DNA of 64,000 bases from Octopus vulgaris. Taxonomy: Eukaryota. The notes under the pieces were generated by a model. It had not been told where the DNA came from. It did not search any database and saw nothing but the letters and a program-made list of their open reading frames with translations. The stretch lies in contig OX597831.1 in NCBI GenBank assembly GCA_951406725.2, forward strand, positions 56,606,001 to 56,670,000, in the 5' to 3' direction. Made by a program: the position numbers and the translations under genes. This document shows positions 13,601-53,895 of the stretch, piece after piece. Position 1 is the first letter of the stretch. Each line of letters starts with the position of its first letter.

Positions 13601-13878
13601 ATTGTTATACTTGGGAATGGTTATATTTTTGCCAATTAAACACACGCATTATATACTCAGTCTTCTCTTCAGATCACTATTATTATTTTAGTGTCTTGGT
13701 CTAAGCTCTTTCATCACACATCATGTGATTGCATCAGTGACTCTTTATCTCAGGATGTGTGATGAAAGAGCTTAGACAAGGACACTAAAATAATAATGAT
13801 AAAGCTGAAGTAAAGACAAAGTATATAGTGCATGTGTTTAATTGGCAAAAAAATATGACCATCCCCAATTATAACAAT
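13601..13878. repeat. Imperfect fold-back inverted repeat (~130-bp arms, ~17-nt loop)
   Basis: For example ttttagtgtcttggtctaagctctttcatcacacatc pairs with gatgtgtgatgaaagagcttagacaaggacactaaaa. Confidence 0.88.
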
Positions 13879-13966
13879 AATATCAATATTTTTTATATGA
13901 ATCAGGCTACAAGATGACTTAAAATCACTTTTTGAAATCCCAAATAACACAAAGAAAACCCCACTA

Positions 13967-14012
<46 letters not shown>

Positions 14013-14088
14013 ATAATATTAGGGAATAAATCCAAATTTACAGGGAAAAATCAGATTTAGGATTGAATCCAATTTTATAGTAAAATAT

Positions 14089-14241
14089 TATATTATATAA
14101 ATTAGAGACAAAACCACTATTATGCAAATCAAACAAAGAAAGACTTAAGCCAATACATAAAATAATTTATATAAATTATTTTATGTATTGGCTTAAGTCT
14201 TTCTTTGTTTGATTTGCATAATAGTGGTTTTGTCTCTAATT

Positions 14242-14252
<11 letters not shown>
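14089..14252. repeat. Perfect 164-bp palindrome (82-bp arms, no loop)
   Basis: Centre at 14170/14171. Arms are exact reverse complements. Lies between two (TA)n tracts. Confidence 0.95.
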
Positions 14253-14283
<31 letters not shown>

Positions 14284-15973
14284 AGAGAGAGAGGGGGAAG
14301 AGAGATAAACACATCCTGGTTATTGACAAAAGTATTATATTTGACATAATAGGGTTGAAACTAGAAACCTTGGATTGAAGTTAATATATGAAAGATAACA
14401 CTACTGTTGAATTCAGGAATACTGAGCGATTCATAAAAAAACATATATGTTAATATCTTACTGATCCCTGTGTGTAAATCAAAAGAAATGTATTACATAA
14501 TTAACAGTAGAAGTAATATTCATGAACAGAGTGCTCTATAGGCCTTCAGAGATTAAGACTGAAGAAATTCTAGTTTTTTAAACTAGTACCCTAAATCTTT
14601 AGAAGCAATTTTCTTTTTCTTTTCTTTTTTTTTTTTGTCATGCTAAGTGTGCTTAAATATTAAGTATCTACAGCTGTCTCTAAAAGAGTACACATGATGA
14701 CAAATCATTGTGCATGCAAGGCTACAGTTCATATCAATAGTTCTTAAAAGTAATTAAAAGTAGATAAAGAAATACAAATGGTAGTTTCTAAAATTTGCAA
14801 TTATTTAATTTGAAGCTTGTCTTTTCAACTTAACAAAAATATATACCAGAATAATAATTTTCCTTCAAATTTATTTATTTCAGAAGGCCATAGATCCCCC
14901 CACCACTGATCTAAAATCACAAAATTGTGAAAATAAAAGTTTGATATAAAATCATGGCATCATGACACTAGTATACTTATCTAAAACAGTGGTGGAGAAA
15001 TATATTTTTATACTGGAAGTTAATGCCATAAGTTAATGCCATAAGCCATTCCTTTTCATGTGCTCTGTTCATTTTCAAAATCAACCACGTTTCTATCATT
15101 TAGTTTTTTGCTGTCTTCTTTATCTTCATTCAAGGGCTAACATAAAATTATCTATTTTTTCTTCAGTGTTATGTACATGTCCTCGCATCGTCTGTTCTGT
15201 TATACTTTAGTTGAAAGAGTTTTGCTGTATGTTTAATACTTTGTTATGCTCTACTTTGTCTTAGTAAAAGTTCAAAAAAGTATTATTTTCCGGTTGCATA
15301 TCATTTAAGTTAAGCTTTGATACACTTAAGTATGTCATACATAGTTTTTTTCATTTATTCTCATACTTATTGTAGTCTTATCTTGTGATATTGTAAATGC
15401 ATTGTCCTATGTCTGTTGTCCCAATCCTTTATTATTGTCCTATTTTAACTACACCTTTCCCTAGTAGAATTTTTCTTTAAATCTACAGGTACACTGAAGT
15501 TAGCAGTACTGTTGTTAAGTATCAAAACTGTAGAACTTCAGTCAACAGCTAATGAGGAAAAATATGTGTCCTTGTTCATCCTTTTTTAATGTTCTATTTA
15601 TTTGATTTGCTCTCTCTCTTTCTTTCTTTCTCTCGCTTTCTCTCTTTCTTTCTCTTTATCCCACTAAAACTCTATCCCACTATCTCACTCTCCCTACCTC
15701 TCTCACTCTCTCTATCTCTATCACACATTCTCTCTCTCTCTCTCACTCTGTGAGTATGTAGCTGTTTGGAAGACCGTTGGATGGATTGCATTTGTAATAA
15801 AAAAAGATCTAGGCTAGCTATGCACATTGCATCACACCGATTCTGACTCAGGATTGCATTGAAAGTACACATGCTTGAGGAACATTCAACTACTTACTCA
15901 CAAATACAATGAGTAGGTAGCTAAATTGGTTGATTAACTGAACACTAATAATTGAAAATGAGGAAAATCCATT

Positions 15974-16015
<42 letters not shown>

Positions 16016-19000: not shown

Positions 19001-19622
19001 TAGGTCAATATATATAGTAACTAACAGGAACAGAAACTGAGGTGACTAGCATACAAAACAAAGTACCATGTGCTCATACACACCTGTAAACCTGGCAATA
19101 TGAGTTCTTTGGAAGCATAACAAAGCTTCATAAGGCAGGTGTACTATCTGGGAAAGTAAGTGACATGTACTTGATCAATATGTATGTGTAGTTGTCGTTA
19201 TTATTAAGGTGGCAAGCTGGCAGAATTATTACTGCACTGGGCAAAATGCTTAGCAGTATTTTCCCAGCTTTATATTCCAACTTCAAATGCTGCTGAGATT
19301 GACTTTATCTTTCATCCTTTCGGGTCAATGAAATAAGTACCAGTTGAATACTGGGGTTGATATAATTGACTTACCCGCCTTCCACTGTAGTAGAAAGGAT
19401 TATCATTATTATTAAGATGGGGAAATATTACCTCACTTGAAAGCAGGTGAAGGTTGGTGACAGGAAGGACATCTGGGTGTAGAAAAATCTACCTCAACAA
19501 ATTTCATCTGACCCATGTGAGCATGAAAAAGTGGACATTAAGATGATGATGACTATATCATTGTACCATTGGGAGGATCATTTTGCCAACAGAAACACAC
19601 ACACACAGACAAACACACACTA

Positions 19623-19940
19623 GTTATATTTCAGGTTTTATTTTTATCAGCCAATTAGTCAACTAATTAACTAATCAATTATTTGATCAATTAATCAGTT
19701 GATTTATTAGAATTCCTTTGTCACAATCTGCAACCTCATCAATGACATGCCCTCATTGGCACCATTTTGCAACTGAAGCAGAAGAGATGAGAGCATTTTC
19801 ATTGATAAGGTTGCAGATGAAAATGAAAGGATCCTGATAAATCAAACCAACTGACTAAGTAAATGATTGATCAAATAATTGACGATTAGTTAATTAGCTA
19901 ATAATAACTGACTGATAATAACAAAGAAGCAAAATATAAC
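19623..19940. repeat. Imperfect fold-back inverted repeat (~320 bp)
   Basis: ctaattaactaatcaattatttgatcaat pairs with attgatcaaataattgacgattagttaattag. atctgcaacctcatcaatga pairs with tcattgataaggttgcagat. Confidence 0.85.
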
Positions 19941-21964
19941 CAATGTGTGCATGTTTTTATTGGCAAAATTACCCTCCCAAAAAACAACCTCTGTTTTAAC
20001 CCATAATTTTACATTAGGGGCTAAAAAGCAAAGCAAGTCAACCCAGACTGAGAAGACCCATGACATAAATATCCATCGTTTTGGTTTTTTTTCTTTCAAA
20101 AGCAGTGTATTTAAGTCTACATTATTCATTATGTTTTATTCTTTTTAAACACCAAGACGTAACTTTAGAGATATTTGGTTGCTTTTGACCAATACTCTAA
20201 CAATTCTGCCAATCTACCTGCCTAATAATAGCTAATAATACAGCTGTGTGTATTCTGGTATGTAGAGCAGGTAACCTGTACCCCTCTGTGCTGTAAGAGT
20301 CAACTAAAAAGGGTGCCATCAGCAGGGGAACATCCAGCAATAAAACACTGCCTTGTAAAGCTCTGTCCAACCCATGTCAATACAGAAAAGCAGATGTTAA
20401 AGTGATGATGATAAAATATTACAATGTAGCTGTGTTTTTAAAAGCAAAAAATAGGTGAATGCTTAGGATGACTGACTTCTGGCTTTACATACCATAATCT
20501 CAAATACCTACAAGAGGCATTATATTTCCTAGATACTCCCAACCATGTTGAATGCTGGATCATGCAGAGAAACAATGCAGATGATTTCAATGACATTCAG
20601 GTTATGGAACAAGACGGTGGAAAATATTAAAGAAAGATATTTTCTTGCATCAAACGGAAGAGACTACTTTTACAAAATCCCCACCCAAGAAATGTGAAGA
20701 TTAGCTTAAGAACTGTATAGTTTCTTTCAAGGTTGGTACTAGGAAAATCTTCTAACCTAATTATTATATATTTATCAACATCACAATCATCTGCATCACC
20801 ACCACCACCACCATTATTAAGGTGGTGCGCTGGAAGAATTGTTTGCATGCAAGACAAAATGCTTTGCGGCATTTCTTCTAGCTCTCTAAATTCTGACTTC
20901 AAATTCCACCAAGGTTGGCTGTGCCTTTCAAAGTCAATAAAATAAGTACTAATTGAGCAATGAGGTAAATGTAATCAACTAGCTCCTCCCCTAAAGTTTC
21001 AGGCCTTGTGCCTATAGTAGAAAAGATTATTATTATTATTATTCAGGTGGTGAGCTGGCAGAATCATTAGCATGTCGGATGAAATGCTTAGCTGTATTTT
21101 GCCTATCACTACATTCTGAGTTCAAATTCTGCCGAGGTTGACCTTAGTCTTCATCCTTTCAAAGTCAATAAAATAAGTACCAGTTGAACACTGGGGTCGA
21201 TGTAATTGACTCATCCCCTCCCCCCAAAATGCTGCACTTGTGGCAAAATTGAAACCATTATTATTACTATTATTATTGCAATTATTGTCATTATCATTGT
21301 TATCATCATCATCATCATTATTATTTTTAGCACTCTGGTATTATTGCAGACCGCCATTGGAACTGCAAACTCCTAATTAAATGAATTGTGTTAATTTCTC
21401 CTTAAGGCTATCCTTTAATCACAGATATAAGAGAAACGAAAGAAATTTTATGCCAGAATATGAAAAACAATGCAACTGAGATATATTAGCCATCTCAAAC
21501 AACCAATTGCTTTATTTCACAAAACAATTCAAATGCATCTTGGGGAACCAGACAGAATCAAGCCTCTATGCAGTAAAATAAATCTGCTTAGAAACAGCAA
21601 CTAAATCTCCCCTCAAAATAAACCTTATTATCTTGTAAAACAGTGAAGGAAACACTGAATAATGTAAGTCTAGAAACATTATATTTAAAAGAAAATAAGA
21701 CAGGATGATCACAATATGTAACTCATTTGATCACAAGTTTGCTTGACCTAGTATGATTAAAAGGAAAAGAACTTCCACCGGTTTACTTGATCTAAATTAC
21801 AACCTACTGTTTTATTACAAAGCAAGACACATAGGATAATGTAGTGTCAGATACATGACATCTTATTGTTTAATTGTTTAACATTCACTTTTAAATGCTT
21901 GCAATTTTGGGTGTGTTTTCTGAGGCCAAATGTCCTTCCCCTTGCTAATCTTTTTAGTCACTTT

Positions 21965-21999
<35 letters not shown>

Positions 22000-23923: not shown

Positions 23924-23968
<45 letters not shown>

Positions 23969-24737: not shown

Positions 24738-24829
<92 letters not shown>

Positions 24830-28420: not shown

Positions 28421-29155
28421 ATCTGTTTTTATGTTCTGAGTTCAAATTCCGCCAAGATTGACTTTGCCTTTCATTCTTTTGGGGTCGATAAAATGAGTAC
28501 CAGTTGAGCACTGGGGTCAATGTAATCAACTTATCCCCTCCCTCGAATTTGCTGGCCTTGTGCCAGAATTTGGAATGAAGGTCGCAAGGTCACAAATTTG
28601 GGGGAATGGATAGTCAATCATATCAATCACAGTACTTTATTGGTTCATTATTTAATCAAATCCAGAAAGATGGGAGACAAAATTGACATCAGCAATACTT
28701 AGAGTCAGAAGATAAAAGGATGCAACAAATATACCACAAAGCATTTTGTCTGCTGCTTTAGCATTCTGCCAATCCAGCCCCTTCTAATATCAACAATAAT
28801 GATGTCTGACATAAGCACAAGGCCACTCATTTGCAACCTCCAGTACATATTCTTTATATCAACCACAGTATTTGTTCTTTCGGTCTCTTTAGCTGAACTG
28901 CTAAGTTACAGGGATGTAAACAATCAGTAGTCAAGTGATGTGGTGGGGATAAACACAAACACACACACACACACATGTTCCCCCAAATTTGTGACCTTCA
29001 TTCCAAATTTTGGCTCAAGGCCAGCAAATTCGAGGGAGGGGATAAGTTGATTACATTGACCCCAGTGCTCAACTGGTACTCATTTTATCGACCCCAAAAG
29101 AATGAAAGGCAAAGTCAATCTCAGCAGAATTTCAACTCAGAACATAAAAACAGAT
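28421..29155. repeat. Local inverted duplication: 28421-28606 vs 28978-29155
   Basis: Near-identical reverse complement that includes copy-specific SINE variants and the junction sequence ggaatgaaggtc...acaaatttggggga. Confidence 0.88.
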
Positions 29156-30886
29156 GTGTGTGTGTAGTCTTTGATATACTATGTCTAAAAATATGTTGTT
29201 GAATAATAAAAGACATATTGAATAATGTAGTCTTTGATTACTCTTTCTAAAAATATGGCAGGATGTTCACAGCTGGAAGACCTGTTGAGGTCAATTATGA
29301 TTTTTCCAACAGGAAGTTACAATAAAAACTTCATTTAAGAATGCCATTTTATTAATGAAAGAAATGTTAAAAAGTTAAAAACAGCAGACTACACATACAC
29401 AGGTGTTCAGATACATATCTCTCCGTCTGCCCCCTGCCTCTTTATCTGTCTCTCTATGGCACACTCACACACACACACAAACACTGGCAAACCAGCGCAG
29501 GATTTACATACACACTCACAGACAAAAATACACATAAAGACATACACAAACAGTGATTCATATATGCAGACATATATCTACAGACATGCAGATGTACAAA
29601 CATGAAGACAAAAAAAAAGAGTCAAAACAAATCAATAAGTAAGCCAGGTAATCTATATAGATGAATTACTGGAAATATCTGTTAAAAGCTAGGTGTGAAG
29701 TTGGCTAACGTTATATAGTACAACTGTGCAATTGTATGTGAACACAGGGAAAGGGAGAGAGCAAGGAGAGATAGGAACGAAGAAAATATGGGGAATGGAG
29801 ATATGTGAAAAATAGAGGGAAAAGATAGGAGAGGATGGGAAAGAGATATAGATAAGGAGGGAAAGACAGACTGAGGAAAGTGAGAGAGATATAGATAAGG
29901 AGAGAGAGACAGATTGAGGAAAGTGAGGGGCACGGACAGAGTTGCAAGAGTTGGGTCTTTTCATTTTCTGCAAATATAAATATTTGTATATGGTTTGATT
30001 GGAGCCAAATGTTTTTTGAAAAGGTTACTCTTCCTACTGCTAAATATTCAATTGTATTTTCATCTAAGCAGATTGAACGAAGCAGATTAATCGATTTTCT
30101 CTGGTGGACACAAGATAATAGCTGCGACTAACTTTGAACTTGTATATTCTTTTCTTCAACAGTTTAGCATCATAACCCCATATACTACATTGAAGTTTGA
30201 ACTTGTTTTCAATGGTTTAGCACTGTAACCCCAGATACTACATCTTAATGACATATTATGGCTTGCTGATATAAAAGATAACATGTCTATAGTTATTAGT
30301 AAAACAAAGTTCACATCAGCAAGTCAAGAATTGTTGAAGATTCAATCAGTCTGCCTACACAGTTGATAGAGTACCAATACAATGTTAGTCATGTTTAAAT
30401 AACTCACTGTTTCAACCGGATTATTGGATGTTGTTTTACACCACTGGTCACAATGTGCTTCATTGCATTGTTGTAGCTTTTGAATGATGCCATTGCTGGT
30501 TAGGCAGGCAGGCCAACATTCCCCGTAACCATTTAGCATTTAAGCAGGCCATATCCAGCCTAAATATGCCTCCTGTTTTATGTTGAAATTGGCCAGATCT
30601 AACCTCTCACACCTACTCTAAAATGTCATTCTAAAAAGAGCATCATTGAAATCTCAAAGCTATGAGATAATACATGATTAATTAAAAACAGTATGAATAA
30701 AAAAGCTTTACATTTGGCAGAGTAATTTGAATACTAACAGGTTAAAGAGTGAACCAGAGCAACATTATATGTAGTGTTTTGCTCAAGAACACAATGCACC
30801 CCTGGTCTGCAAATCGAAACCATGAACTTGTGATTGCGAGTGCAACACCCTAACCACTAAACCACACACTTTCACATAAACAAATA

Positions 30887-31100
30887 CATGGACTTATATC
30901 CATTTGTATTTATTCTCAATGTAAAATTAGGCCCAAGAAGGCCTTTTTAGCAGTTTGGGCCATGTACTAAACCAGCTGGTCCCATTGTTAATTAACAATC
31001 CATCAGGACTTGCTTCTCTTTCCTCATCCCAATCTGTCAAAAGGGCCATTATGGGCCTAATTTTACAGCAAGGCTAAATACATATGAAAGTGAGTCTATG
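30887..31100. repeat. Imperfect fold-back inverted repeat
   Basis: tgtaaaattaggcccaagaaggcctttttagcagtttggg pairs with cccaatctgtcaaaagggccattatgggcctaattttaca, and pairing extends outward. Confidence 0.8.
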
Positions 31101-34100
31101 GATATATTTATATATTGAATATGCATCCATTACTGTCTAAGCTATGTCATCATTGATAACAATTACATAACTAGCTCAAAATGTAGAGTATTTTGTCCTC
31201 ATTTCTTCAGAATCCTGTTCACAATTTGGTTTGGTTTTGATCCAACAGAAGCTGAAATCTAAATGTTAAGATAAAAATCAATCTACTCTTTCAGTAGCTT
31301 TTTATAAACTTCCACTATCTTTATGTCAAATATATTCAGTGCTTTCACCCCAACTCTGCATCTCTTCTCTCTTAATCAATACAATAGGAAGAGCTACTTA
31401 ATAATACAAGCTTCAAATGAGAAAAAAAAAATACTTTCCTTATTCCTTTACTTAAAAAAAGTTTCATGGGTGGGCAGGAGGACACAGTCACAAAACTATC
31501 TAAAGTTTATGTTACATTACAGATAAACTCAAGATAATTTTTAACCAGTAAAGAAGAAAGTGGGGGTCTTCAAAGAAAACTTTAAATAAATTTAATTCAG
31601 TTTATTGCCTGTTTTCCATGCACAGGCATGTCTATGCTAAGAAGCATGCTTCCCAACAAAATGATTTTGAGTACAATCACATTGCATGGCACCTTCTTTT
31701 ATGGCCCAGGGCCAAATAAACCCTGGTGAGTGGATTTGGTAGACAGAAATTGAAAGAAGCCTAAGCACACACACACACACGTCTTTGTGTTTGTTCATCA
31801 CTCTCAAATGCTTGATAACTGGCGTTGGTTTGTTTACATACCCTTAACTTAGCAATTCAGCAAAAGAGAATGCTAGAATAAGTACCAGGCTTAAAAAACA
31901 AGCACTGGGGTTAATTTTTTCGATTAAACCCTTCAAGGCGGTACCCCAGCATTGCTGCAGTCCAATGACTGAAACGAGTAAGTAAAAGATAAGAAAGAGT
32001 ATAACAAAGAGCCATCAAACTTATGATGTCTTGAAATCTAGATTCAGTCATGTTGTTGTCCATAACTGATAATCTTTGATTGAAATAGGAAAATGTGAAA
32101 CTGGAACTTTAAGCATCTGCTGGTTTTATTTAGGTAATGGGCAGGTAACAAGAACATCTGTTCTAACAAAGGTGTTAATTATAGGAATTGAGTCTTCTAT
32201 TTCACAGGCAAAGGTTTAATTAGTTAGTTGTTATTGAGTTGATTTGCTTGCCTTTGCTTTATATACATACATATTAATTAATAGGACCAATTCACAGTGC
32301 CTCTTTTTTTTTAAGCTTCAATGTGTTTAAACCATGTATTGTTCTTTCTAAGTAGGAAGCTTCAAACAAACAGATGTCACCATTGTCACCAACACTATTA
32401 CTGTTTGAAATTCACTTTTCTAAGCTGGATTGGGTGAGATAGGTTTTCAAAGGGAGTACTTTACAACTGGATTGCTTTCCTGCTGCCAAGCCTCGTAGTT
32501 GCTTCTTGTGACATAGGGACATAATATACCTCTGATATAGAAATCAACCTGACTAGTTTCACCAGAGATCAGTTATTCATTTTTCTGACCAGAGGACTTA
32601 CCATTCACCTTGCAGTAATACTGCTTGCTTTCCACATTTAAACATTCCACAATTAAATGTCTCTACATCACAATCAGAAATCTAAGTGTCTTTCTACCCT
32701 GACAATGGAGGCTCGATTTACCCAATGTTTATTTGCTTCCATCACTGGCTGCATATTATGGTGAACTACATCTACCAACATTATGATGGATCTCCAAGCC
32801 CCAGAAACAGCTGTTGGACTTGTAAAGCCTTACCTCCTCCCTTTAATTTTTTCTGTCATTTGTACTCTGTGTAAGTTTGATCTATTCATATAATAATATC
32901 TCTCTTTTTTTTTTTTTTACTCTCTTTTACTTGTTTCAGTCATTTGACTGCAGCCATGCTGGAGCACTGCCTTTAGCCGAGCAAATTGACCCCCAGGACT
33001 TATTCTTTGTAAGCTTAGTACTTATTCTATCGGACTCTTTTGCTGAATCGCTAAGTTACAGGGACATAAACACCAGCATCAGTTGTCAAGTGATGTCGGG
33101 GGGACAAACACAGACACACAAACATATACACTGACACATACATATATATATATACGGGCTTATTTCAGTTTCCATCTACCAAATCCACTCACAAGGCTTT
33201 GGTCAGCCCAAGGCTATAGTAGAAGACACTTGCCCAAGGTGCCACGCAGTGGGAATGAACCTGTAACCATGTGGTTGGTAAGCAAGCTACTTACCACGCA
33301 GCTATTCCTGCGCCTATATATTTATCCTTAAATATTCATCATCTGAAAATTTTCAGTCTATGCTTTCTTTCTGTTTGCATATATATATATACACATGACA
33401 TGTGTCTTTCAGTTTCTTGCTACCAAATCCACTTACAGAGCTTTGGTCACCCTGAGCCTACAGCAGAAGCCCAAGGCACCACAGAGTAGGACTGAACCCA
33501 GAACCATGTGATTGGGAAGCAAACATACCACACAACCATGCCTATACCTATGAATACTAATTTTCAAAAGAAAAATATTTAGTACCTTTAAATAAAATTA
33601 GATGAAACAAATTACTCATTTATACTTTTGTGATAAATATATGCCATTGTTTTCTAAATTTTATCAACATCATCACAATCTACTCCATCATAAATCTATT
33701 TCTGCAAAATTTCATCTCCTCCTCTGCCGCAGTAATTTTTTTCATTCTTACTACATGTGCCACCAAGCTGAGCACATGCACTCATCCTGTACCTCCTACG
33801 TTGGCACTCTCTCTATCTCTTTTACTATGTCCCCATCTCTCTAGATAATGCAAACAATGACATGAGAAATCAACCAACCAACATTTATATCAGCTATTAT
33901 TAAGTAGAGACATATATGTATGCATGTACATACATGCAAGTACATGCACACACAGTGGCATCACTTAGTTTAATGACAACATTATGCTGATAATTATTTC
34001 ATTTACATATTCGCTTATGAATCAAGCTATATATAAATAACAAAAAAAAAACAATTATGAAATCTTTTAAATAATATAAGTTTAAATATGAAAATTTTAA

Positions 34101-36212: not shown

Positions 36213-39050
36213 AAGAGAGAGACTAATTGTATGAAGGAGAAAGGCAGACACACATCGGCTATAGCAGTTAATGAAAGAGTGGAAGAGACCATCAGCTGTA
36301 GACGTCTAAATATAGACCAGAGATATACCAATGAAAAGAAGAAGAGAACATCAGCTACAAGAATCTAAATATAGATTGAAAGTTGAAAGACATACAAAAG
36401 AGATATGATAATGATGCCAGGTGTCAAAAGGGATGGATTTAAGAAAGTTAGCTGTTAGATGCAGAGTTTAACTCCATCTAGTCTGGTTGTAATTTCAATT
36501 TCAAACCTGTAGAATTGTCTTCTTTCCACTAATAATTTTAAAAATTACAACAAACATATTCCAGGTTTCATTCATCTTCTCCACCTTACTCCACCTGAAT
36601 CAATCATGATTGAAGAGATCTATATTCAGAGATGATCTGTCCATGGTTATTCTACTTTTTTTTTTTTTGCATGCTTCTAACACTGCCCAGTATGTGCTTC
36701 CATTTTTAAGGTGGTAGAGTGTGACTGAGAGAAAAATGGCTGTTATTTCTAGCAGGTTCTGTAACTACACAGAGCATCCCTAGTTGGCTTGATATATACT
36801 GTAGTAAATCTTCAAAGAAAAATAATAACTTGAATTATTTGCATTTTGGAGGTGAGAAAAAAAAAAAAAAAAAAAGAGAATTATGCATTATAGAAATTAA
36901 ATATATTTTTTTTAAAATAATTCAGATGAAATAATTGATAAAATTCTGAACAACTTCTTGATTTGATTTAATCATATTAAAAGAAATGGTTCTATACCAA
37001 ATATTTCAGTGATACTAAAGTTATTATCGACACCTCAGATTGGAATGAGGAAGGGAAGGAAGACTTCAGGTGAAATATATGTAGTAATATGTATTAATAT
37101 CTATTGTGATAAAGCACATTCTTGTAATTCACGAACTGACAAAGTAAAAATAGAAATCAGATTTATTATGATAAACCAGGAGACAGAATTAAAGAGTTAG
37201 CAGGGAAGGAGATAGATAGATGTTTAGAGAGAGAGAGAGAGGAGGAGGAGGAGAGGGAGAAAAAGAATAGCAGAAATGAGGTAACAAGTCTATTAATAGT
37301 GGTAGGAGGAATTTGCCAAATCTTAATATTATTTGCCATTAGGAAAGAAATATAACTAAGTAAAGAGATGGCATAAATCCAAAATGTAGACAATGTGATT
37401 TCCATTTTAAGTGAATCAGAAGATGATATTCTATGATTATTGAGATTATTTAATTAGCACCTGGATGATTTTCTAAAAATTTAGATATCACAAATCTGTT
37501 AATTTGCTCTCAGAATTTGAGAATTTTTGGATATAAAACAGTTTGGACAGTGATCATAAACGTGAAAAAAAATTTAGAAGATCCTCTAACCTGTTATAAT
37601 TATCACAATAGCCAGGCTAAACATTCCAATAAGATCTATTTATTTATGCATTATCATCATTTTTATTATTTAAGGCAGTGAGCTGGTAGAATCATTGGCA
37701 AGTCAAACGAAATGCTTAGTGGCACTTCTGGTTCTTTATGTACTGAGGTCACATTCCACCAAAATCAACTTTGCCTTCAAATCCTTACAGGTTTGATAAA
37801 AGGGTAACAGTTGAACACTGGGGTTAGTGTAATTGACTTACCCCTACAGTTCAAATTGCTGGCCTTGAGTCAATGAAATAAGTACTAAGGTGGTGAGCTT
37901 GCAGAATTGTTAGCACACCAGGCAAAATGGTTAGCAGCAGTTTGTCCATTTTTACATTCTGGGTTCAAATTCTGCTGAGGTTAGCTTTGCTTTTCATCCT
38001 TAGGGTCAATAAAATAAGTACCAGTTGAATCCACACTTCTATAATTCCTGGCCATGTACCAAAATTTGAAACCAATAGAATTATTACTGGGAGAGAGTTT
38101 GTCCACCCCACCACCATTGCTTGACAACTGATGTTGGTGTGTTTATGTCCCCTTAACTTGGCAGTTCGGCAAAAATAATAAGTCCTGGGGTCGATTTGTT
38201 TGACTAAAGGCGGTGCTCCAGCATGACCGCAGTCAAGTGACTAAAACAAATAAAAGAATAAAATAAAAATACAACTAGCATAACTTAACAGCATTCTTTA
38301 TATAACAACACCAACAACCTTTTAAATCAGCTGTAGCTACTATCATTACTAAATATCAAAAATCACGGAGTGGTTGGCATTAGGAAGGGCATCCAGCTGT
38401 AGAAACACTGCCAGATCAGACTGGAGCCTGGTGCAGTCTCCTGGCTTCCCAGACTCCAGTTGAACCGTCCAATCCATGCCAGCAAGGAAAACGGACGTTA
38501 AACAATGATGATGATGATGATGATGATGATAGGTTCTGTTTAACAAGTTAAAAAAAAAAAGTTCAAACAAAATATTTTAAAGAACTTAATAACACATGTT
38601 GCAAGTTCAGATTACTCAAGCAATGAGTCATATTCAAATTCATTTTGAACATTATAAATTCCCTGCTGTGAAACCAAATCTAGAAACAAAACTCAGTTAT
38701 TGTAAACATGTCCCTGGTACCCTCTGAAGAAATTCTAAGAAAGTGAAACTCATTCACTCCTACTTCCTATGCCAATCACGTGAGAGTAGCAGCTGCTGCA
38801 TTAAAGTGGTTAAAGTGTCTAACTAGAATTCCACTTCAGTACTAGTACAAATATTAGTTGCACCACCCATATAGGATTGAATTTCTATTTATTTATTTTT
38901 TTTTTTTTGCAAACCATTAAAAAAGAAAAAGTGAACCATTTCCTGGTTTTTAAAGATTGTAACTGCCCCCATCCAATATATTAGTATTTGCCAACAGTAA
39001 CTATACATACACAGACACACGCCCACACATTAAATATTTAGAAAAAGCTG

Positions 39051-39100
39051 CAGAGTGACTCAAAGTTCAAGAGTTTCGTGTGTTAGCAATTATCAAAGTA
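39051..39100 (-). ncRNA. Degenerate hammerhead-like motif (same family as both arms of 53765-53895)
   Basis: Minus strand UUGAUAA-uugc(uaac)acac-GAAA-CUC(uugaacuuu)GAGU-C-acucug. Stem II is damaged and the 5' strand of stem I is not evident. Confidence 0.4.
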
Positions 39101-39125
39101 GTTACAGGTTGAAGGGCTATATATA

Positions 39126-39660
39126 CAGAGTGTCCCAGGGTTTCAATTTTTAATAACTTCCTTAACTTTACAAATAAATGCATGCAATTTTGATACAATA
39201 TAAAGGACATAATGGAAATTAATATGCACAAGTCACTACATCACATATGAAAAATGACATCGCTTAAATGGCAGCCATTTTTGGCTTCGCATGCCCATGC
39301 TCTTTCCAAAACTTGCACCATATTTCAAATGGCGGTGCCCCAGCATGGCCACAGCTCGTGAGCTGAAACTAGAATCAATCAATCATAACATTCTCAAGAG
39401 TTTCAGACCCCTGTTCTCTGATCTCTACTGATGTTTGCATTCAGCAGCACCAGGGTCTGTGGTTTGCTGATGTAAACTCTCTCTTTCAGGTGTCCCCACA
39501 AGAAAAAATCCAGGCTAGTCAAGTCTAGGGAATGTGAAGGTCAGTTGACATTGCCATAGCAGGGGATAATTCTCTCTCCAAAGCACTGCGGTAGCAACTG
39601 CATTGTTTCTCTTGCAGTATGAGCAGTTGTCTCATCATGTGTGAAATCTACTTTGAATGG
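39126..39660 (-). mobile_element. 3' part of a DD41D (rosa-like) Tc1/mariner element with a SINE-tail insertion (~39331-39385)
   Basis: TA|cagagtgtccca terminus. Peptide remnants HDETTAHTARETMQLL...GNVN*PSHSLDLTSLDFFLWGHLKERVY (about 41 residues between the 2nd and 3rd D, allowing for a frameshift) and C-terminal ACEAKNGCHLSDVIFHM*. Confidence 0.8.
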
Positions 39661-40444
39661 CCGGGCACAAAAAGATCTCAATCATGGATATCTGAAAGAG
39701 AAGGTTTACGTCAACAAACTGGAGTTCCTAGTATAACTGGAGTACAACCACAGACTTACAATATAGAAAGAATGATGAACTATAACCTCGGATCCTGCCA
39801 CAAGAATACACAGAGTTCTTTACTAATCTAAACAATATTCTTAGTCTCGTGTACTAACAGAGAGCTTACAAAGCATTTTGCCCAGATTGATATGATGTAT
39901 GAATGTTCAGCAAGAAGACAAGAAAAAGAAATCTAGCTAGATAGACAATCAACCAACACACTCACATTACTATTATTACCATTCACCCATGTTTACAATT
40001 CACTCATTTTACCTGGTGACTCCTCATGTGAGTTCTCAGGCAACCAAAAGCAATATGGCTATGAGAATAAGCATGGCTTATTAAACCAGCATGTGATCTC
40101 ACTGAAGAATCGCAATGTGGACGATGGTGGTTTGTGGGCGGGCTGTTGTTCTGTTGGTTTCTTTCCCTGTTTTCCCGTAACTGCTCTTGAATGTTGTACC
40201 TTTTGGGTTTGGGAATTTTGAAGCTGGAAAAAAAGCACTCTCTCCTTCACTCTGCACAGTTTCTTGCTAGATTCTCAAAGTTTTCTTTCCAAATACTAAT
40301 TTTTATATATATATATATATACATATACACACATATATGTGTATGTATGTACATATTATATATATATATATACAAGATAAGAAAATGGAGAAATACATCT
40401 ATATATATATGTGTGTGTATGTATGTATATATGCATGTATATAT

Positions 40445-40631: not shown

Positions 40632-40640
<9 letters not shown>
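40445..40640. repeat. 24-bp minisatellite (acatacatacacaaatgtatatat) ~8 copies within low-complexity DNA
   Basis: Unit is directly visible and produces the YIHTQMYI repeats in the ORF track. Confidence 0.9.
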
Positions 40641-40662
<22 letters not shown>

Positions 40663-42024: not shown

Positions 42025-42076
<52 letters not shown>

Positions 42077-43889: not shown

Positions 43890-44039
43890 ATTTTGTTGGG
43901 TCTTGGGAGAGTAATTATGCCAATAATAAATAACACAAGCGCACAGGTTCAATTCTATTGACTAACAATAAAAAAGTGGAATTGAACCTGCGCAGGTCTT
44001 TTTATTATTGATGTAATGACTCTCCCAAGACAACAAAAT
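43890..44039. repeat. Imperfect fold-back inverted repeat (~150 bp)
   Basis: attttgttg..gtcttgggagagtaattatgccaataataaa...caggttcaattc pairs with gaattgaacctg...tttattattgatgtaatgactctcccaagacaacaaaat. Confidence 0.85.
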
Positions 44040-44599: not shown

Positions 44600-46100
44600 T
44601 CACAGAATACTTCCATGCAGAAACCTGTGGAATTTTTTAACTGCAAAAATAATTGCTAGGGTCTCCTTTTCAATTTCACTACATCTTTTCTCTGCAGCTT
44701 TTAGCGAGCACGAAACATGAACCACTGGTTTTGTACTTCCGTCTTCATATTTATGAAGTAGAACTGCACCTAATCTGTGCTTGGAAGCATCAGATGCTAC
44801 AATGATGTCCAAGAACAGGTCTGGGATTAGAATTCTTTTCTATTTCTTCAAAAGTGTTCTGCCATTTAGTGGACCAATTCCACTTTACTCCTTTTTTTTA
44901 ATAAGTTGTTCAATGGAGCTCTTAATTTGTGCATATTAGGAATGTAGTTTTGGTAGTAGTTTGCCAGCCCAAGAAATGCTTATAAATTTAGAATATTTGT
45001 CGGCGCAGGCATATTCCTTATTGCATCTGCCCTCGACGGGTCAAGATGTCTACCACTGTTATCAATCATTTGCCCTAAGTACTTAATTTGGGATAGAAAG
45101 AATTCCCATTTTTCTTCACTCAAAGTGAAACTGAAAACTTTAATTTTCTTAAACAAAGCTTTTATGAGTTCCACATGCTGTTCGTGAGAATTACTCTTGA
45201 TAAAAAAATATTGCCCAAGTATGAGATTGCAAATTCACAATCACATAACATAGTATCCATGATTTGCTAGAATATTTTTTCTGGTGCCACTTTTAATCCA
45301 AAAGGTAATCGTGTGTATCTGTATAATCCTCTGCATGTATTTATTGTCAAATACTTTGAGCATTTTTCATTTGCTTTTATCTGCAAATGGGCTTCAGACA
45401 GATCTAATTCAGAAAAGACTTTTCCATCATTTAACTTTGAAAAAAAGTCCTCTGCAGTTGGGAGTGGATGGTGGTATGTTTTTAAATAGTCATTCAATCC
45501 TGTAGAGAAATCAGCATGCAGCCTAATCTTTTTTTTTTTTTTTTAATACATACTGTGGGTACTGTCCACTTTGAGTAATCCACCTTTTTGAGGACTCCAC
45601 TCTTTTTGAGTCTGTCTAACACCTCATTTACGGTTTCATTTTCTGCAAACAGTACTTTTCTGTTTGCTTCAAATACAGGTACAGCATTATAACTTACTTG
45701 GAAATAGGCTTTCATCTTTCTGCAAAAACCTAAATCCTTTGATAACACTTGTAGGAATATTTTTTTAAATATTTTCTTCAGTTCCTCCGAAGACTTGTTT
45801 TTAATGGGACAACCATTTATGTTATTGCAGTAAAGATTTATGGGGAGGTGCCATAAATCAAATAGTTCTAACCAATCTGTGCCAAACAGATTAATTGTAT
45901 TATCCACAACGAATAATTTTGCTTCAAATGTCTCTCCTCAAAATGTGATATCGATACACATTCTGTCCATGAAATGTAATTTATCGTTCGTTACACCACA
46001 TGCTATGTTTTATGTAATCTCAGTTCACCAATTTTTTCCCCAATATCCACATTTATAATCAAGTATTATTACCTGTGTCTAACTGTAATTTGGTATTCAC
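44600..46100 (-). pseudogene. Gypsy pol remnant (protease-RT-RNase H)
   Basis: HPLPTAEDFFSKLNDGKVFSELDLSEAHLQI, GLYRYTRLPFGLK, IKYLGQMID and IVASDASKHRLGAVL...EKETLAIIFAVKKFHRFLHG. Frameshifted. Confidence 0.9.
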
Positions 46101-46268
46101 ATCATTTATTTTTACGTGCATGAATTTTCTTGTTTTTCCATTGCAATCACTCTCCACTGAAAACACCTTAGAACTTTTTAGGTTTGAGCCATGTTAGTCT
46201 TGTTCTACATGAGAACTCTTGTGTCCCAGCTTCTGACAACATTAGCACTTTTTGCTTTAAAATTAATT

Positions 46269-48570
46269 ATTAGTGTCACTACTGAAGAACCTTTAGGTCA
46301 CTCTGATCGTTCCTTGATCATGGCCGACTTGTCTCTGATTGGTTGTAACAAAATTCACAACCATCTTCAAACTGCCCACTTTGATTGAAATAAAGCAGAC
46401 TGGAACTCTTATTGTACCGAGGTGCAATGCCCAAACTAGCTTGAATTTTATGTCTATGGAGATGTGAACACTATACTTCAAAACATTCTGAATTCAATAT
46501 GGACGGCATGTGCAGCATCGGTACCACGCAAGCACAAAAACCTCCTAATAGTGCAATTTGGGAGACTGCAGCAGTCCGACGTGCCAGGAAAGAATGCTGT
46601 AATGCTGAACAGGAATACAAAATGCACAAATCAGAGATTAACAGGAAAAAGTGCAATAGATCATCCAACCGTCTCAAGCAGATGACAAAAAAGGCAGTGC
46701 TTGAATTCGAACAGCGCATAGCAACCAACCCTGACAGCAAAGTGTTCTGGAAGTATGCACATTCAAAGCAGAGACCTACTCTCCAGTTGGTCCCTTTCGC
46801 AATCTCCACACAGGCCAGATTACTGACAATCCCAAAGAAAGTGCAGAAATTATTGCTGGATGCTATGCAGGCATCTTTACTGTCAAAGATAAAAATGTTC
46901 CATCTCCATCACCTCTGACACTGGACTCTATAACTACTATGAAATTTACACCAGCAATGCTACAATGCCACCTTAAGAATAAACATAACTATGCCTCTCC
47001 TGGTCTTGAGGGTGTTATATACCTACTTCTCAAATGCTGTGGGTACTTTCTTCTGAACCAACTTTCACTATTCTTTCTATTCTGTCTTGACAATGGTGTT
47101 ACTCCAGAGCAGTGGAAAACTGCCAGTGTTATCCCTCTATTCAAAAAAGGTGACCGCACATCGCCTGTCAACTATCACCCTGTTAGTCTTACTAGCTGCA
47201 TCGCTAAACTGATGGAATCCTGTGTCAGAGAAACCCTCTGGAACTTCTGGAAGTCTCACAGCCTCATCCAGCTGTCACAATTTGGATTTATTCCTAACTC
47301 CAGATGCTGTAATCAACTCATCGAGTTTCTTGAGGACATTACCTGAATCACTGATGGCAGCTTCTGGGTGGATGTTGTTTACCTGGACTTTGCTAAGATT
47401 TTTAATTCTGTGCCACACAAAAGACTTATGGTGAAACTCTCTGTAATGGGTGTAAGAGATGATCTCTATAACTGGTTGAAGTCCTTCATTATTGGCCGAA
47501 AAGAGGTTGTCACAGTTCTAGGACAGCACTCTTCACCCTATGAGATGACATCTGGTGTACTATAGGGATCTGTTCTTGGTCCCCTTTTATTTGTTGCATA
47601 TATTAATGACATAGATGCCAACTTAAAGAATGCCACAATGCTGAAATATGCTGATGACATCAAGCTGTACCTCGAAATAAAGAAGACAGATCCTGTACAC
47701 TATAGATCTTTATTGCAATCTGACCTGGACACAATGCAGCAATGGATCATGGACTGGCAACTCAAGCTGGCCGTGGACAAATGTACCACCATGCATTTTG
47801 GGAGGAAAAACCCAGCGTCTACTTACTCCCTGCATAACCCTAATCTCAAAAAGTCTTCTTGTGAACATGACCTGGGCATTATTGTCGACAGCGATTTGTG
47901 TTGGACAAAACACATTGCTAAAATTGCCAAGAAGGCTGAGAGTGTCTTGGCATCACTTACCAAGTCCTTTGTGAGCTGCTCTCCTGTGTGGCCTCACCGG
48001 TCTGGAACCCCTATCTTGCCCAGGATATTAATCATCTGGAAACTATTCAGCAACATGCAACCAAGAGAATACCCTCCATCAGGCATTTGCCATATTCTGA
48101 ATGCCTTACTTCCCTGGGCAGGGATACATTGAAACTCCAACATCTGGCAACTGACTTGGCAGACACCCATAAAATTATTAACCATCTTACTAACAATAAC
48201 TCTGAGCACCTTTTCAAACTCCACCTGACTAACACCTGTGGACATGTTTACAAAGTCAGAAAACAGTACAGCTCCCATGACTTTCGGAAACATTTTTTTC
48301 ATGCTAAGAGTTGCTGAAGCATGGAACAGACTGCTGGCATGAGTTGTTAGTTGTCGGAGCACTGCATCCTTCAAAACTTCCATGCTTCCTAAGATGCGCC
48401 AACATTACACCCGATTTTCTCCCCTCCATACGCATGCAAGCATATATCTGACTCATACACTGTTCACTTTCCAGACATTTGTACATTACTGCATATACTT
48501 TATACGCTCTTTTGACAAGTTATAGTGCACCAGAGCACTGTATACAATAATTTCATTATTATTATTATTA
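46269..48570 (+). mobile_element. 5'-truncated CR1-clade LINE (end of APE + RT), (ATT)n tail
   Basis: PLGHSD (APE end), FKKGDRTSPVNYHPVSLTSCIAKLME, VYLDFAK, GSVLGPLLF, KYADDIKL and RVAEAWNRL. Stops and frameshifts present. Possible attaatt TSD at 46262-46268 and 48567-48573. Confidence 0.93.
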
Positions 48571-51500
48571 ATTGTTGTAGTTGTTCCTTTTGCTTCTCTT
48601 AAAGCTGTACTACAGCAGCTAATAGATTTTCCATGACACAGAAATTGTCAAATAACCAATGTGAGTTTCGAACGATCTTTGTTACCAGATATTATATCCT
48701 TAAAGATAAACGAATACACTGCAAAAGTGTAATAACGAAACGAACGGCAGTAACCACATGGAACCTAACAGCAATCTTTTAAGAACCAACAATCCAACAC
48801 ACTAACTTGTATCCAATGTGTACTGTTAGAGGCAACTAAAATAGTTGGCATCCAACCATCAAAAAACACTGCTTGGAAAAGTCCTATCCAACTCATAATG
48901 GCCTGAAAATGAGGACATAAAACGATGATGGTGATGATTATATAATCACTATTAATCCAAGATTCCAAAGATGCTGCCAGCTGACCTAGCTATAACAACA
49001 TTTTCATATGTAAAATTAATGCAGCATCAGCTGCAGTTTAGATATCTTGTAGAGATGTAAGGAATTAACTAAAATCCTGGGATTCATTAGAGCTTAATAT
49101 ATATATTGTAAGCTTGAACACTGGACTTTTGTATCCTTTGGTACCTTCAGAATATAAACAATTTTACATTCACTGAAATTAACCAGAAGCTTATTAATTA
49201 GAATGATTTTAACACAGGGAGAAGAAAATTAAACTGTATCTATATAATAATGAATATATTAATAATTCCTATAAAAAAAAAATAATTTTCCTGACATTTG
49301 TTTTTAAACATAATTTTGTTTCAAAAATCAATAAAATGGATTGGAAACTAATACCAGATGTTCTAGAAATAACATTTATACAAGCAACCTAAACAACTAT
49401 TCAATATGTATGTAATCGTGAAATATATAATAAAATAAAATCTATTTTTCCAATAGAAATATGTAATTGTGAAAAGAGGTGCAGGAAACTGAAGATGATA
49501 TTGTAATAATACAATTTAGCTCATTATCCTTTTCACACCAAGCTACCAGTCAATATAGTGAACAGAAATAATGCATAGATGCATGTATGCACACATACAC
49601 ACACATCTGTGTGTATATGTTAACAGTGACAAAGCATAAAAAATGACTAATGAGAGAGACATCAATAATAAAAAATCAATGACAGAAAGTGATCGAGTAT
49701 ATATTTGCTACTTCCCACCTCTACACACACTTTCAAACTAAAGTGAAAGTTTTAAGATACTAACTATGGTTATTATACCATCATTAAAAAGAAACCAAAC
49801 TTTTCAGTAGAGTAATCAAAATATAAAAGAAAGAAAATCTGAGAAATAAACATCTATTATTGCAAGTAATATTTTCAAAAGAACAAATTCATTTTTTTTT
49901 TTTTTCGCATTGCACAAAAGAATGCTAAGATGCGACATTGTTGATGAATGACCAAACAGCATCAGAACTAAAAAAAAAAAAAAAAAACCAATATGGGTAA
50001 CAGCTACATGAAATTAACTGATCATAAAATATTTAGTTTACAAATATAAATAATAATTCCGAAATTAAAAATAGAAAAAAAAAAACTAATGGGACATGTT
50101 AGTGGTTAAGATATACGATATGGTGGGTTTCATCGAGGATGGGGCGAGCTTGGTCAAACCAGATCGAGTCGCTCTTATGATCAAAGGCAGGTCTGATCAT
50201 TTTGAATTTCAAGGACTATGTTGTCTAAGATGGTATGGTGTGATTTAAAATAGATGAGAATGTTATTTTTAAAGCAGCGGTTCCCAAACCTATGCATTAC
50301 GAATACAGACTCTTTCACTTCGAAATATTGGATAAAATGCTAAGATGTTCATGAATTTTATACAATATGCCATAGGTATAAGGCCTAACAATAATGACTA
50401 CAAAAAAAAAAATTAGGAATATTTGCAATAAAAGTGTCAGATATTGATTTATTAAGTTTATAGATTTTTTTTTTCTATTTTAGCATTTAAAAAGATATGG
50501 TCGTGTAAGATTAAAGTCACGGAGTAGAAAAAAAAAAGCTGTGACCCGCTGCTGAAAAAAATCACCGGTGTTAACTCAGCAACCGCATAGTGGTTCCCCA
50601 TAATCACATTAGCATATGCTTTACAGACGAAGAACCGGTAGTTAGTGATCTGTGACCTGTGCTGTATACTGACTGTATCCATGGCCAACGCTTAACAGAC
50701 AATTGCACCCGGCTGTAAAAGAGTGGAATCGGGGTGGATAGAGTTCACTGCGGCAGCCTGCAGCAAACATTGTGCAACTGACTAATATTTTCTTCGCTAG
50801 CATGCCGAATTGAATGAAAGCCTCCTACGAGTATGGAAGGGCGATCAGAGTGGTTTAGCTTAAATATACTGCATAAAGATTAAATATTCATTGATATCCC
50901 ACAACTAAATTGTTTAACCAACTCGCCGCTATAATCACCACCATCATTATGTGCTTTACCAAATTAGTTGAGGACAAATTTACCTTTTCATTTATTTATT
51001 TAATACAACCGGCATCATGTGCAGGATAGTTGGGTCTTCTTGCATAATAGTCCGATGGTAAAAAGAAATGAATGTCTGAATATATCTTGAAATTTGAGGG
51101 TTAAGAATTAGTGTCAAAGATGCAGGAAATAACTTAATTTAGACTGCAGAAGAAGCAACTTTTTTTTCTTTTTAATCTTAAAAGAAAAGTGAATTAGCCG
51201 GCAACTTCGGAGTGCAAAACAAACAAATTTTTCGCCTAGTTTTATAGTGAAAACAACTACAATAGTTGTAGCTTGAAAAGAAATTATATATAAGCCGGGA
51301 GTAAAGAATTTGTCTGCTTGTAGGTGCTTCTTTAGACAAGTTTGGGAATTATAATAGACAATTCTTCTTTAATCGAGTTATTAACCGACATTAAGCAAAA
51401 GTTTGTTGGGTGGAAAATGAATGATAAAACTATTAAATAATATCGTACAACACACACATAAGTGTGTGTGTGTGAATAGTGCGTGCAAATAGGTATAATA

Positions 51501-53764
51501 TTAGCAATTGATGGCTTGCAACGAAAAGAGATTTTTTTTTTAAGCAATCAGAAAGTTTTCACCAACTTCCAGTGTTTGTGTGCGTGTGTATATATATATA
51601 TAAATGAGCTATTTTAGTAAGGAAGTGTGTAACCGGCAGCTAAACGTGTAATAAGAGAAATAAAACTCATTCGGGGTGAAGAAAGAGAAAAGAAGAAAGC
51701 GGTCAGATACAAGAAAGTGATAATGGAAACAAACAAGATAGTTTATTTAGTATGGGGTGGGCTAAACAAACATTGGACAAACAGATAATTGCTTCAAGGA
51801 CAGAAATATCAGCAATAACAACAGCCAAGGCAGAAACCTCCAATGCTGGCGTTCGATCTGCTAGAAATAGCAGTCAAATCTGCTTCAAACCATACCTTAA
51901 AATGTTGAATAAGCAAAAATTAGATAAAGTAACCCTACATGGTCCTAACATGGTGACGTAAATATAACTAAGATACTTCTGATCACAGGTCTGCTCAGGT
52001 AGTGTTGACCCAGAGTTAAACAACAGGCAATAAACTATCAATTACTGACGCTTGACAGATTTATTGACAACAAACTGCAGTCAAAATGCAATTATATATT
52101 TGGTGGAAGAGGTAGTAGGGAATTTTCAATGAATGTCTAAAATGTATGTAAATGAAATTAGAGACAAGTATTACAATTGTGCGACACATGCATAACGAAC
52201 AATTTATTGAATTTTTTTCTTTTTTCATATTTTGTGGGAAAATAAAGGATTCTTGTTACCCATTCCCATATTACCTATCTCATAAATCTGAAATGTTGTG
52301 CCCATATAAGAAATCAATATAAAATCACTATAATGATGTTATTGTAATATAAAATAATGTTCACACTAATGTATGTCTTTGGCAAATATAGAAAATGATG
52401 TACATTATTATATTCACTTATATAAGCACACAAATGCATGCAACCAAACATGTACAACCAACACACACACACACACACAATAGCGCATTGCAGTAGTTAG
52501 TAGAAAACAATATGTAGTATGAAGTTAAATAATATACTGTTAAGGTATATAATAATTAGGTGGCAGAGAAAAAGGACCTATAAAGTGTACCACGATAGTG
52601 CATGCATCTAACATTACCTTACACAAATACTGTCATACACTTAGTGATGTGTGTGTGTGTGTCACAGTGCATACATTACATACACACACACACACATATA
52701 TATACATACACATATATGCACATACATATATACATCTATACACATATATGCACATACATATATACATGCACACATATACATCTATACACATATGCACATA
52801 TATACATGCACACATATACATCTATGCACATACATATATACATGCACACATATACACGTACATATATACATGCATATGCAAGCATATATATATATATACA
52901 TGCATGCATATGAATGTACACATATGCATGCATATGTGTATGCATGTATATATATATATACGTATATAAATATATACATACATATATGCAAACATATGCA
53001 TACACATGTATAGACATATACGCACACATGCATACACACATGCACATAAGTATATATATATATTTTCATACATAGGTGTATATAACCTTTACATTTTCAT
53101 ACATATATACATATGCATACACACAATTTATATATATACACACACACACACCTATATATCATCTTATCATTTACATCTTTCTATGCTCACATGGATTAGA
53201 CAAGTCATCACAACTCGTGTCACTTCTTATTCAAGAGCTACTGTCCTCCTGGAAAGGTTGGAGGACCACACACTTCATTTCTTTCTTTTGACTTCCTTTC
53301 CATGGCTGGATGCCCCTCCTGTCACCAACCACTTTACAGAATGTCTGGGTTTATTTTATTATGGCACCAGTACTAGAAGGATTGGCATGTCGACAACAAG
53401 ACTAGAAGGATCTTACGACACTGATGTTTCATTTCCACTTTTACAGAGAATATTCAGTGGATTTTATCATGGTACCAACTTGAGTGCAGTCGCCTTGTAT
53501 CACGAAATATTAAAGTCTTCACACTCTACGATGTATTCATTCATATATATATATAAACGATGATGATGATGATATATATATATATATATACATACATACG
53601 CACATATATCTACACATGTTCATAGACATATGTGTGGCTTGACCATGTTCCTATAAACTGGTACCCCAAGACCATATATAGTCACACATAATATGCATAT
53701 ATTGGTATGGTAATGCAAATAGGCAAAATATTGCTCAAAATATAAGTATATGTATATTTCTTTA

Positions 53765-53895
53765 TTAATATTTAGCAGAACAGAGTTACTCAAGGTCTCA
53801 GAGTTTCGTGTATTGGCACTTACCAAAGTTGATAAGCGCTAAGGCACGAAAACTCTTGGAACTTTAATCACCTTGTTACTTCTGCTAAATATTAA
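53765..53895. ncRNA. Fold-back of two head-to-head hammerhead-like motifs
   Basis: + arm: caaag-UUGAUAA-gcgc(uaag)gcac-GAAA-acuc...aauc-accuug. - arm: UUGGUAA-gugc(caau)acac-GAAA-CUC(ugagaccuu)GAGU-A-acucug. The outer ends ttaatatttagcagaa are identical inverted copies. Confidence 0.5.

Follow-up and report, generated by a model that had tools for sequence, protein, structure and literature searches.

Insertions of Penelope-like elements (PLEs), Octopus families included, frequently comprise an inverted 5′-truncated copy, carry a one-sided tail of 30–40 bp and show a bias for (TA)n (PMC8557442; all citations here refer to excerpts of the works named). Head-to-head pseudo-long terminal repeats (pseudo-LTRs) with palindromic junctions have been ascribed to self-priming (PMC3846280), and a purified PLE protein cleaves AT-rich targets, with extension of both strands initiated at identical internal sites (PMC11167929). 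The minimal hammerhead ribozymes (min-HHRs) of PLEs have a long helix II and an extra base after A9 and occur as opposite-strand pairs 100–700 bp apart; a U3-A8 covariation is known from Cercyon PLEs (PMC4209133). Six fold-back elements (hairpins H1–H6) in a 64,000-nt stretch of Octopus vulgaris DNA (assembly GCA_951406725.2, contig OX597831.1, positions 56,606,001 to 56,670,000; hereafter the window, numbered from its first letter) are compared here with these systems. The reading proposed, which is held at about even chances, is that most of the hairpins are head-to-head pairs of short 5′-truncated PLE 3′ ends (pseudo-LTR stumps), arranged with the 3′ ends outward and produced by two-ended priming.

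Fold-backs, family ends and insertion sites

The original prediction placed six hairpins in the window, with arms extending almost to the centre, and arm alignment recovers all six at the positions claimed. H1 (13600–13879) has arms at 13600–13729 and 13747–13879, which are identical in 113 of 133 columns and are separated by a 17-nt loop. H2 (14089–14252) is a perfect palindrome of 164 nt, with arms of 82 + 82 nt at 100% identity and a loop of 0 nt. H3, initially given as 19623–19940, has a larger true extent of 19569–19980, with 147 of 212 columns identical (42 gap columns) and a 30-nt loop. The 84-nt arms of H4 (30876–31111) are identical at 63 of 84 positions and flank a 68-nt loop, such that they stop short of the centre; the loops elsewhere measure 0–30 nt. 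H5 (43890–44039) has arms of 66 and 61 nt (54/66 identical) and a loop of 23 nt, and in H6 (53765–53895) 49 of 67 positions are identical, with a loop of 2 nt.

When the microsatellite-masked whole window was scanned for fold-backs and compared with 100 locally shuffled windows, nine sites scored at least 35 (shuffle mean 0.03) and seven at least 50, the top shuffled score being 38. H1–H5 score 63–161, above all 100 shuffles, and H6, with a score of 36, is borderline when taken alone. Two further fold-backs, H0 (4824–5059) and H7 (57990–58354), emerged from the same scan.

The hairpins had been described as sharing no sequence with one another, which does not hold. H1, H3, and H5 have a common outer end of ~60 nt (family A), and H6 (family B) matches a single arm at 39030–39099 (E 1e-9, z 16). 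In leave-one-out trials, a profile of the family A end recovers the omitted element in 4/4 cases, with best-arm E values of 3.5e-8 to 9.6e-4; the best unrelated match has an E value of 0.65 or worse, and the right arm of H5 reaches merely 1.4. The family A end also occurs as a 40-nt solo form at 61946–61985, located between TA-rich tracts and with no partner arm found downstream. The family B solo at 39030–39099 lies on the minus strand, harbors a U3-A8 core and adjoins a CA/TG tract with its 3′ end; no partner arm was found within 3.4 kb. For H2 and H4, the window holds no convincing relatives. The insertions are likely to have come from a minimum of two families (A, with H1, H3, H5, and 61946; B, with H6 and 39030), perhaps four, at different times.

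A fold point that varies among related copies had been put forward as a test, and within the window the fold point does vary: family A arms measure ~130, 190, and 65 nt, in addition to the unfolded 40-nt solo, and H6 differs in the same manner from its solo arm. The family A hairpins are 150, 280, and 412 nt long and the window contains two one-ended solos, such that, in the window, the uniform length of a miniature inverted-repeat transposable element (MITE) is not seen. The ~60-nt terminal inverted repeats common to H1, H3, and H5 are of the kind expected of MITEs. The 3′ ends point outward with variable truncation, an orientation read from the hammerhead-like motifs in H1, H4, and H6. No tandem array, as expected of retrozymes, was found over any hairpin, the arrangement being inverted.

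The claim that several hairpins abut CA/TA microsatellites stands in part. The true end of the element lies at most 10 nt from a purine–pyrimidine (RY) tract in three of the six (P 0.10) and at most 50 nt in five of the six (P 0.03), whereas for H4 the distance is at least 650 nt, and the left arm of H3 itself contains the CA tract seen there. The right end of H2 passes into (TA)n. On the other side, a one-sided extension of ~75 nt (14010–14088) between a TA tract and the H2 left arm is a candidate PLE tail; no convincing second copy of it was found in the window. All three solos (39030, 61946, and a third at 57922, described below) adjoin TA or CA tracts. No target-site duplication (TSD) had been recognized at the outset, and indeed, for the 10 boundary sets examined, flanking direct repeats of at least 5 bp never exceed chance; duplications of 2–4 bp (TA, TTAA) are not judgeable in AT-rich DNA. 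The proposal that a TSD would mark the hairpins as ordinary MITEs is not decisive alone, since PLE inserts with 8–10 bp TSDs are reported (PMC3846280).

Hammerhead-like motifs and the endonuclease fragment

One hairpin had been credited with hammerhead cores, and those of H6 are present in degenerate form. Each H6 arm consists of a degenerate U3-A8 hammerhead plus 22–26 nt, with the core starting 0–2 nt from the fold point. The U3-A8 core is found in the right arm of H6 and in the solo at 39030, and the left arm has one additional change. In both arms and the solo, helix II is short, and a 4-bp helix III precedes the UH triplet in two of the three.

A decayed type I hammerhead-like motif extends across the loop and left arm of H1 (13703–13737, minus strand), with one core irregularity, a 7-bp helix II and a short helix III. 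It has the top score of the hammerhead scan of the window and is also matched by a literature-based descriptor; without the insertion option, its best placement shifts and P becomes 0.046. The H4 loop harbors a weak hammerhead-like motif (30970–31006, minus strand) in which three core A are read as G and helix I is absent. The second rank in the scan belongs to a motif at 57988, with an intact core, 67 nt from (TA)n. It is part of a solo PLE-like 3′ end (57922–57992, minus strand) in which helix II is damaged and which adjoins (TA)n and is joined to H7.

The motifs of H1 and H6, and weakly that of H4, read outward from the centre and are located at the fold point. Where it can be set independently of the motif, the inner boundary of the element precedes the core by 9 nt in H1, 21 nt in H4, 2 nt in H6 left, 0 nt in H6 right, and 4 nt in 57922. 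Against a background of 531 tiled window segments, the motif P values of the individual hairpins are 0.004 for H1, 0.011 for H4 (with a descriptor relaxed after the motif had been seen), 0.10 for H6, 0.14 for H3, 0.85 for H5, and 0.93 for H2, and Fisher combination over the six yields P 0.004. The literature-based descriptor, which was built from published features with the candidates already known, places two of its 14 matches (H1 and H6) at most 40 nt from the six centres, where 0.11 would be expected (P 0.005), and misses H4, H6 right, 39030, and 57988. At best, the candidates are decayed ribozymes, the evidential value of which would lie in their position and orientation.

A minimal hammerhead-like motif is also present at ~9755–9796 on the minus strand, with a perfect core, a G-C closing pair and a palindromic helix III. 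It is located outside any hairpin and has no TA tract beside it; ~0.4 such matches are expected per shuffled window.

The PLE GIY-YIG fragment that had been noted in the window is present at 60866–61216 on the plus strand, as a frameshifted C-terminal endonuclease (EN) fragment of a Hydra-clade PLE. An exhaustive protein search matches it to 2166 proteins; in the long ones, which are reverse transcriptase (RT)-like proteins of 458–604 aa, the match is at the C-terminus. The EN fragment contains CRLC and CPH, corresponding to the CxxC and CxH motifs by which the Hydra clade is recognized. Pfam gave no match on the fragment itself, and two of the seven homologues scanned gave sub-threshold GIY-YIG matches. 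The long homologue P0126 has a DKT motif; the RT part is absent from the window. The fragment demonstrates the presence of Hydra-clade PLEs in the genome.

Origin of the fold-backs

In two-ended priming, the PLE GIY-YIG nuclease would make a double-strand cut in DNA that is AT-rich or microsatellite in nature, and both free 3′ ends would prime reverse transcription at the internal start site of the element. Each cDNA would end after ~60–190 nt, in many cases close to where the hammerhead begins on its 5′ side. Repair would then join the two cDNAs head to head, with the loop representing the overhang of the longer one. One-ended events would give rise to the solo pieces. The points that speak for such a PLE origin are the outer ends held in common by arms of unequal length, the unpaired solos, the outward motifs, the U3-A8 core known from PLEs, the lack of TSDs above chance, and the presence in the window of a Hydra-clade EN fragment and of the 57922 end. 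The PLE origin put forward in the original prediction is supported in the case of H6 and H1; H3 and H5 are drawn in solely through the common end, the support is weak for H4, and for H2 it comes down to context. The original prediction does not stand insofar as the hairpins are partly related, the EN fragment is unlinked to them, and snap-back is indistinguishable from two-ended priming. The elements were likely dead after insertion, with their ribozymes since decayed, and H2 is likely the youngest of the hairpins.

Several observations weigh against a PLE origin by two-ended priming. No hairpin was matched to a known PLE. The EN fragment had been noted alongside the hairpins, yet no DNA in common with any hairpin was detected; the DNA downstream of the fragment likewise gave no match to them. 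H4, H6, and 39030 lack helix I or have only a weak one, and H2, H3, and H5 contain no supported hammerhead motif at the P values given above; one that had been read by eye in H3 was dropped. The relaxed hammerhead descriptor was tuned after H1 and H4 had been seen, and the literature-based descriptor yields a total close to chance (14 matches versus a shuffled mean of 10.8 and maximum of 17). Rfam returned no hammerhead family over the whole window (E up to 5) or two short stretches (E up to 10), giving sub-threshold microRNA-like and snoRNA matches only, and in energy folding of the isolated hammerhead candidates none of six was better than shuffles. Five short motifs of the window found 0 matches in the Craig supplement (PMC8557442), and the Naiad 3′-end motif 0 matches in the window. 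H1 is bounded by TA on either side, as a duplicated TA target would leave it, and its interior gives no significant alignment to that of H3 (P 0.10 and 0.47), for which reason an inner homology of the two was dropped; ends in common together with unrelated interiors are the pattern of MITEs as well.

These last points, and the near-chance frequency of single hammerhead matches, would suit several families of MITEs or fold-back DNA transposons, possibly Crypton-like, in which the H1/H3/H5 ends would be transposase-binding and the hammerheads chance occurrences or inherited debris. Palindromic DNA-transposon repeats that are heavily edited are, moreover, known in Xenopus (PMC5625713). Such an origin is nevertheless rather unlikely: it is opposed by two one-ended solos without partner arms, by the lack of TSDs of at least 5 bp above chance, and by motifs that gather at the fold points and point outward. 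The Crypton lead found no support in the excerpts consulted; the families described in PMC3212892 lack terminal inverted repeats. Snap-back, in which the origin would be the same PLE and one short cDNA (or antisense template) would self-prime on a small palindrome such that the second arm is copied, is judged unlikely. It accords with the folding of H2 without a loop at an AT palindrome and of H6 with a 2-nt loop, and palindromic junctions of head-to-head copies have been interpreted as products of self-priming (PMC3846280). However, the loops of H1 (17 nt) and H4 (68 nt) extend on one side only and no priming homology is seen in them, the parent sequence in which microhomology would show is absent from the window, and two-strand priming is supported in vitro (PMC11167929).

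Inverted duplication of nearby DNA by template switching at breaks near microsatellites, independent of any element, is itself seen in the window, where H7 copies an adjacent mariner end and an inverted copy of 28421–28612, crossing a two-repeat junction, sits within a CA/TG tract ~400 nt off. Both H7 and the 28.4–29.2 kb pair likely arose in this way. As a source of the six hairpins such duplication is highly improbable, leaving unexplained both the same family end in three hairpins and the motifs at fold points. For H2 taken singly, the arms of 100% identity, the loop of 0 nt, and a perfect 138-bp tandem duplication 1.3 kb away could reflect an assembly or library artefact. This is considered very unlikely given the asymmetric flanks, with the 75-nt extension on one side and the TA tract on the other; the arms of the five other hairpins are diverged, so these are not artefacts of that kind.

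Genomic setting and comparison with known systems

The G+C content of the window is 35%, and microsatellites and dispersed repeats are abundant. The first coding exon of a VPS13A/C-type gene is located on the minus strand at 54928–55029, where 34 codons, 97% identical to the N-terminus of an Argonauta hians VPS13-family protein, are followed by a GT donor. The remaining 562 residues of the Argonauta protein have no convincing placement in the window, and no second exon was found over the next 54.9 kb. H1–H6 are situated 1–41 kb downstream of exon 1. As all six lie downstream of this exon and no later exon was detected, they likely sit within a giant first intron of VPS13, of more than 54 kb, and the pre-mRNA setting that had been ascribed to them appears plausible.

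On the minus strand, the six hairpins are predicted to fold into stems of 51–167 pairs (z −13 to −35), with a longest unbroken helix of 14–24 bp in five of them and of 80 bp in H2. If transcribed in the VPS13 intron, these stems of 50–170 bp would be plausible passive substrates of ADAR, and the short loops should favor folding. Over 1–54927, the fold-back arms (H0–H6) amount to 1415 nt, compared with 2517 nt for dispersed inverted repeats at gaps of up to 2 kb and 5490 nt at gaps of up to 10 kb; as the dispersed repeats cover more, the hairpins are not the main local source of predicted duplex. The arms differ by 29 A/G versus 18 C/T exchanges, and an edited-template signature was discarded on this basis (P 0.21 after composition). 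In the motif of the H4 loop, G occurs at three normally invariant core adenosines, a pattern expected from an edited template.

Octopus is extreme in hyper-editing and in near-perfect double-stranded RNA (dsRNA), and its repeats were unannotated and left out of the repeat analysis; in the lizard, Penelope is the most edited repeat of the long interspersed nuclear element (LINE) type (PMC5625713). In squid, ubiquitous editing falls on repeats of introns and untranslated regions (PMC9068888). It is conceivable, though quite unlikely, that octopod genomes carry ~1 per 10 kb of head-to-head PLE stumps devoid of open reading frames (ORFs), formed by reverse transcription stalling at the hammerhead of the element itself, and that these are a main unannotated source of the near-perfect dsRNA and extreme hyper-editing of Octopus. 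If true, the stumps would be the octopus counterpart of the palindromic Harbinger of the frog and would preserve, across the genome, fossil traces of PLE priming from two ends. Apart from this broader reading, the six hairpins correct the annotation in that MITE-like repeats may be retrotransposon ends. A large set of short fold-backs in which the fold point can be mapped would decide between self-priming and both-strand priming of the inverted ends of PLEs.

The window contains further inverted duplications and decayed repeats. H7 (57990–58354) is an inverted duplicate of an adjacent mariner end (157 nt, 99%) with a 51-nt loop that includes a TA tract. At 57874–58354, the PLE-like end on its TA tract is joined, 4 nt upstream of the hammerhead core, to the mariner copy of H7, which suggests template switching onto flanking DNA during PLE insertion. 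A near-identical inverted duplication across a two-repeat junction (28421–28612 / 28978–29155), at the CA/TG switch of a microsatellite, is predicted to form an unbroken helix of 117 bp, the longest in the presumed intron. H0 (4824–5059; 68/94 identical, 54-nt loop) is partly a dispersed repeat resembling short interspersed nuclear elements (SINEs), and the perfect 138-bp tandem duplication lies at 12498–12776, being either very recent or an assembly artefact. Between 9176 and 63656, at least three SINE-like families occur in both orientations and offer more potential inverted pairing than the fold-backs. A decayed element at ~59480–60865, directly after which the EN fragment begins, gave no Pfam match for the one ORF scanned; from its translation, 3′ hairpin and CTAG, we take it to be Helitron-like. 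Other decayed transposons are found at 58198–59477, 694–1701, 39120–39700, 44600–45940, and 46445–48448 and comprise two mariners, a Tc1-like element, a gypsy-like RT/RNase H and a LINE RT. Pfam identified HTH_48 for one mariner and RVT_1 for the RT pieces; apart from these matches, bystander repeats are called SINE, Helitron, Tc1, gypsy, or CR1/L2 here by presumptive assignment of our own.

Among Hydra-clade PLEs, which target (TA)n, the tract that also adjoins the 57922 end, Hydra-1_Obim shares with the EN fragment, by eye, a PERRNTTTLA stretch and the CxxC/CxH motifs (PMC8557442). By eye, the Hydra-1_Obim 3′ end has no likeness among the hairpins. The hammerhead of Hydra-2_Amil (PMC8557442) resembles, again by eye, the 57922 motif and helices II/III of H6 left, whereas the listed Hydra motifs, with C3-G8 and loops of 1–3 nt, differ from H6, in which the core is U3-A8 and loop 3 measures 9 nt. 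The consensus ends of Octopus Naiad were considered as parents and set aside, with no motif match in a comparison of end snippets in which words split across FASTA lines were missed. With the PLE min-HHRs, the window has in common a long helix II, an unpaired base after A9, a short palindromic helix III, U3-A8 and close opposite-strand pairs (PMC4209133). The window motifs differ in that they are decayed and known from sequence alone, and the published pairs, 100–700 bp apart, are not described as hairpins in the excerpt.

Non-LTR retrozymes, which are short, non-coding, related to PLEs and equipped with type I hammerheads (PMC7229834; bioRxiv 10.64898/2026.07.22.740005), are in these respects akin to the octopus elements as interpreted here. 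Retrozymes are direct tandem repeats, in contrast to the inverted pairs or solos of the octopus. The palindromic Harbinger repeats of Xenopus tropicalis (PMC5625713) are self-folding units of ~200 bp that, like the hairpins, require no neighboring inverted copy for dsRNA to form, and the hairpins would act toward ADAR in a similar way. The Harbinger repeats belong to the DNA transposons, their consensus is palindromic and editing has been shown for them, whereas the octopus elements likely stem from retrotransposition and have a variable fold point.

A search of literature listings, with most subscription journals outside its scope, brought up no account of fold-backs of this type from cephalopods. 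The closest likeness is to the inverted pseudo-LTRs of Adineta (PMC3846280) and of EN+ PLEs (PMC8557442), in which head-to-head 5′-truncated copies of unequal length occur as they do in the window. Palindromic junctions are likewise common to both, and an optional one-sided tail and microsatellite or AT-rich sites may be (PMC3846280, PMC8557442). In contrast to the EN+ PLE pseudo-LTRs, the octopus pairs are minimal (130–410 bp in total), ORF-less and decayed, and no 8–10 bp TSD is seen. The architecture itself is thus already published, and the window adds octopod examples to it.

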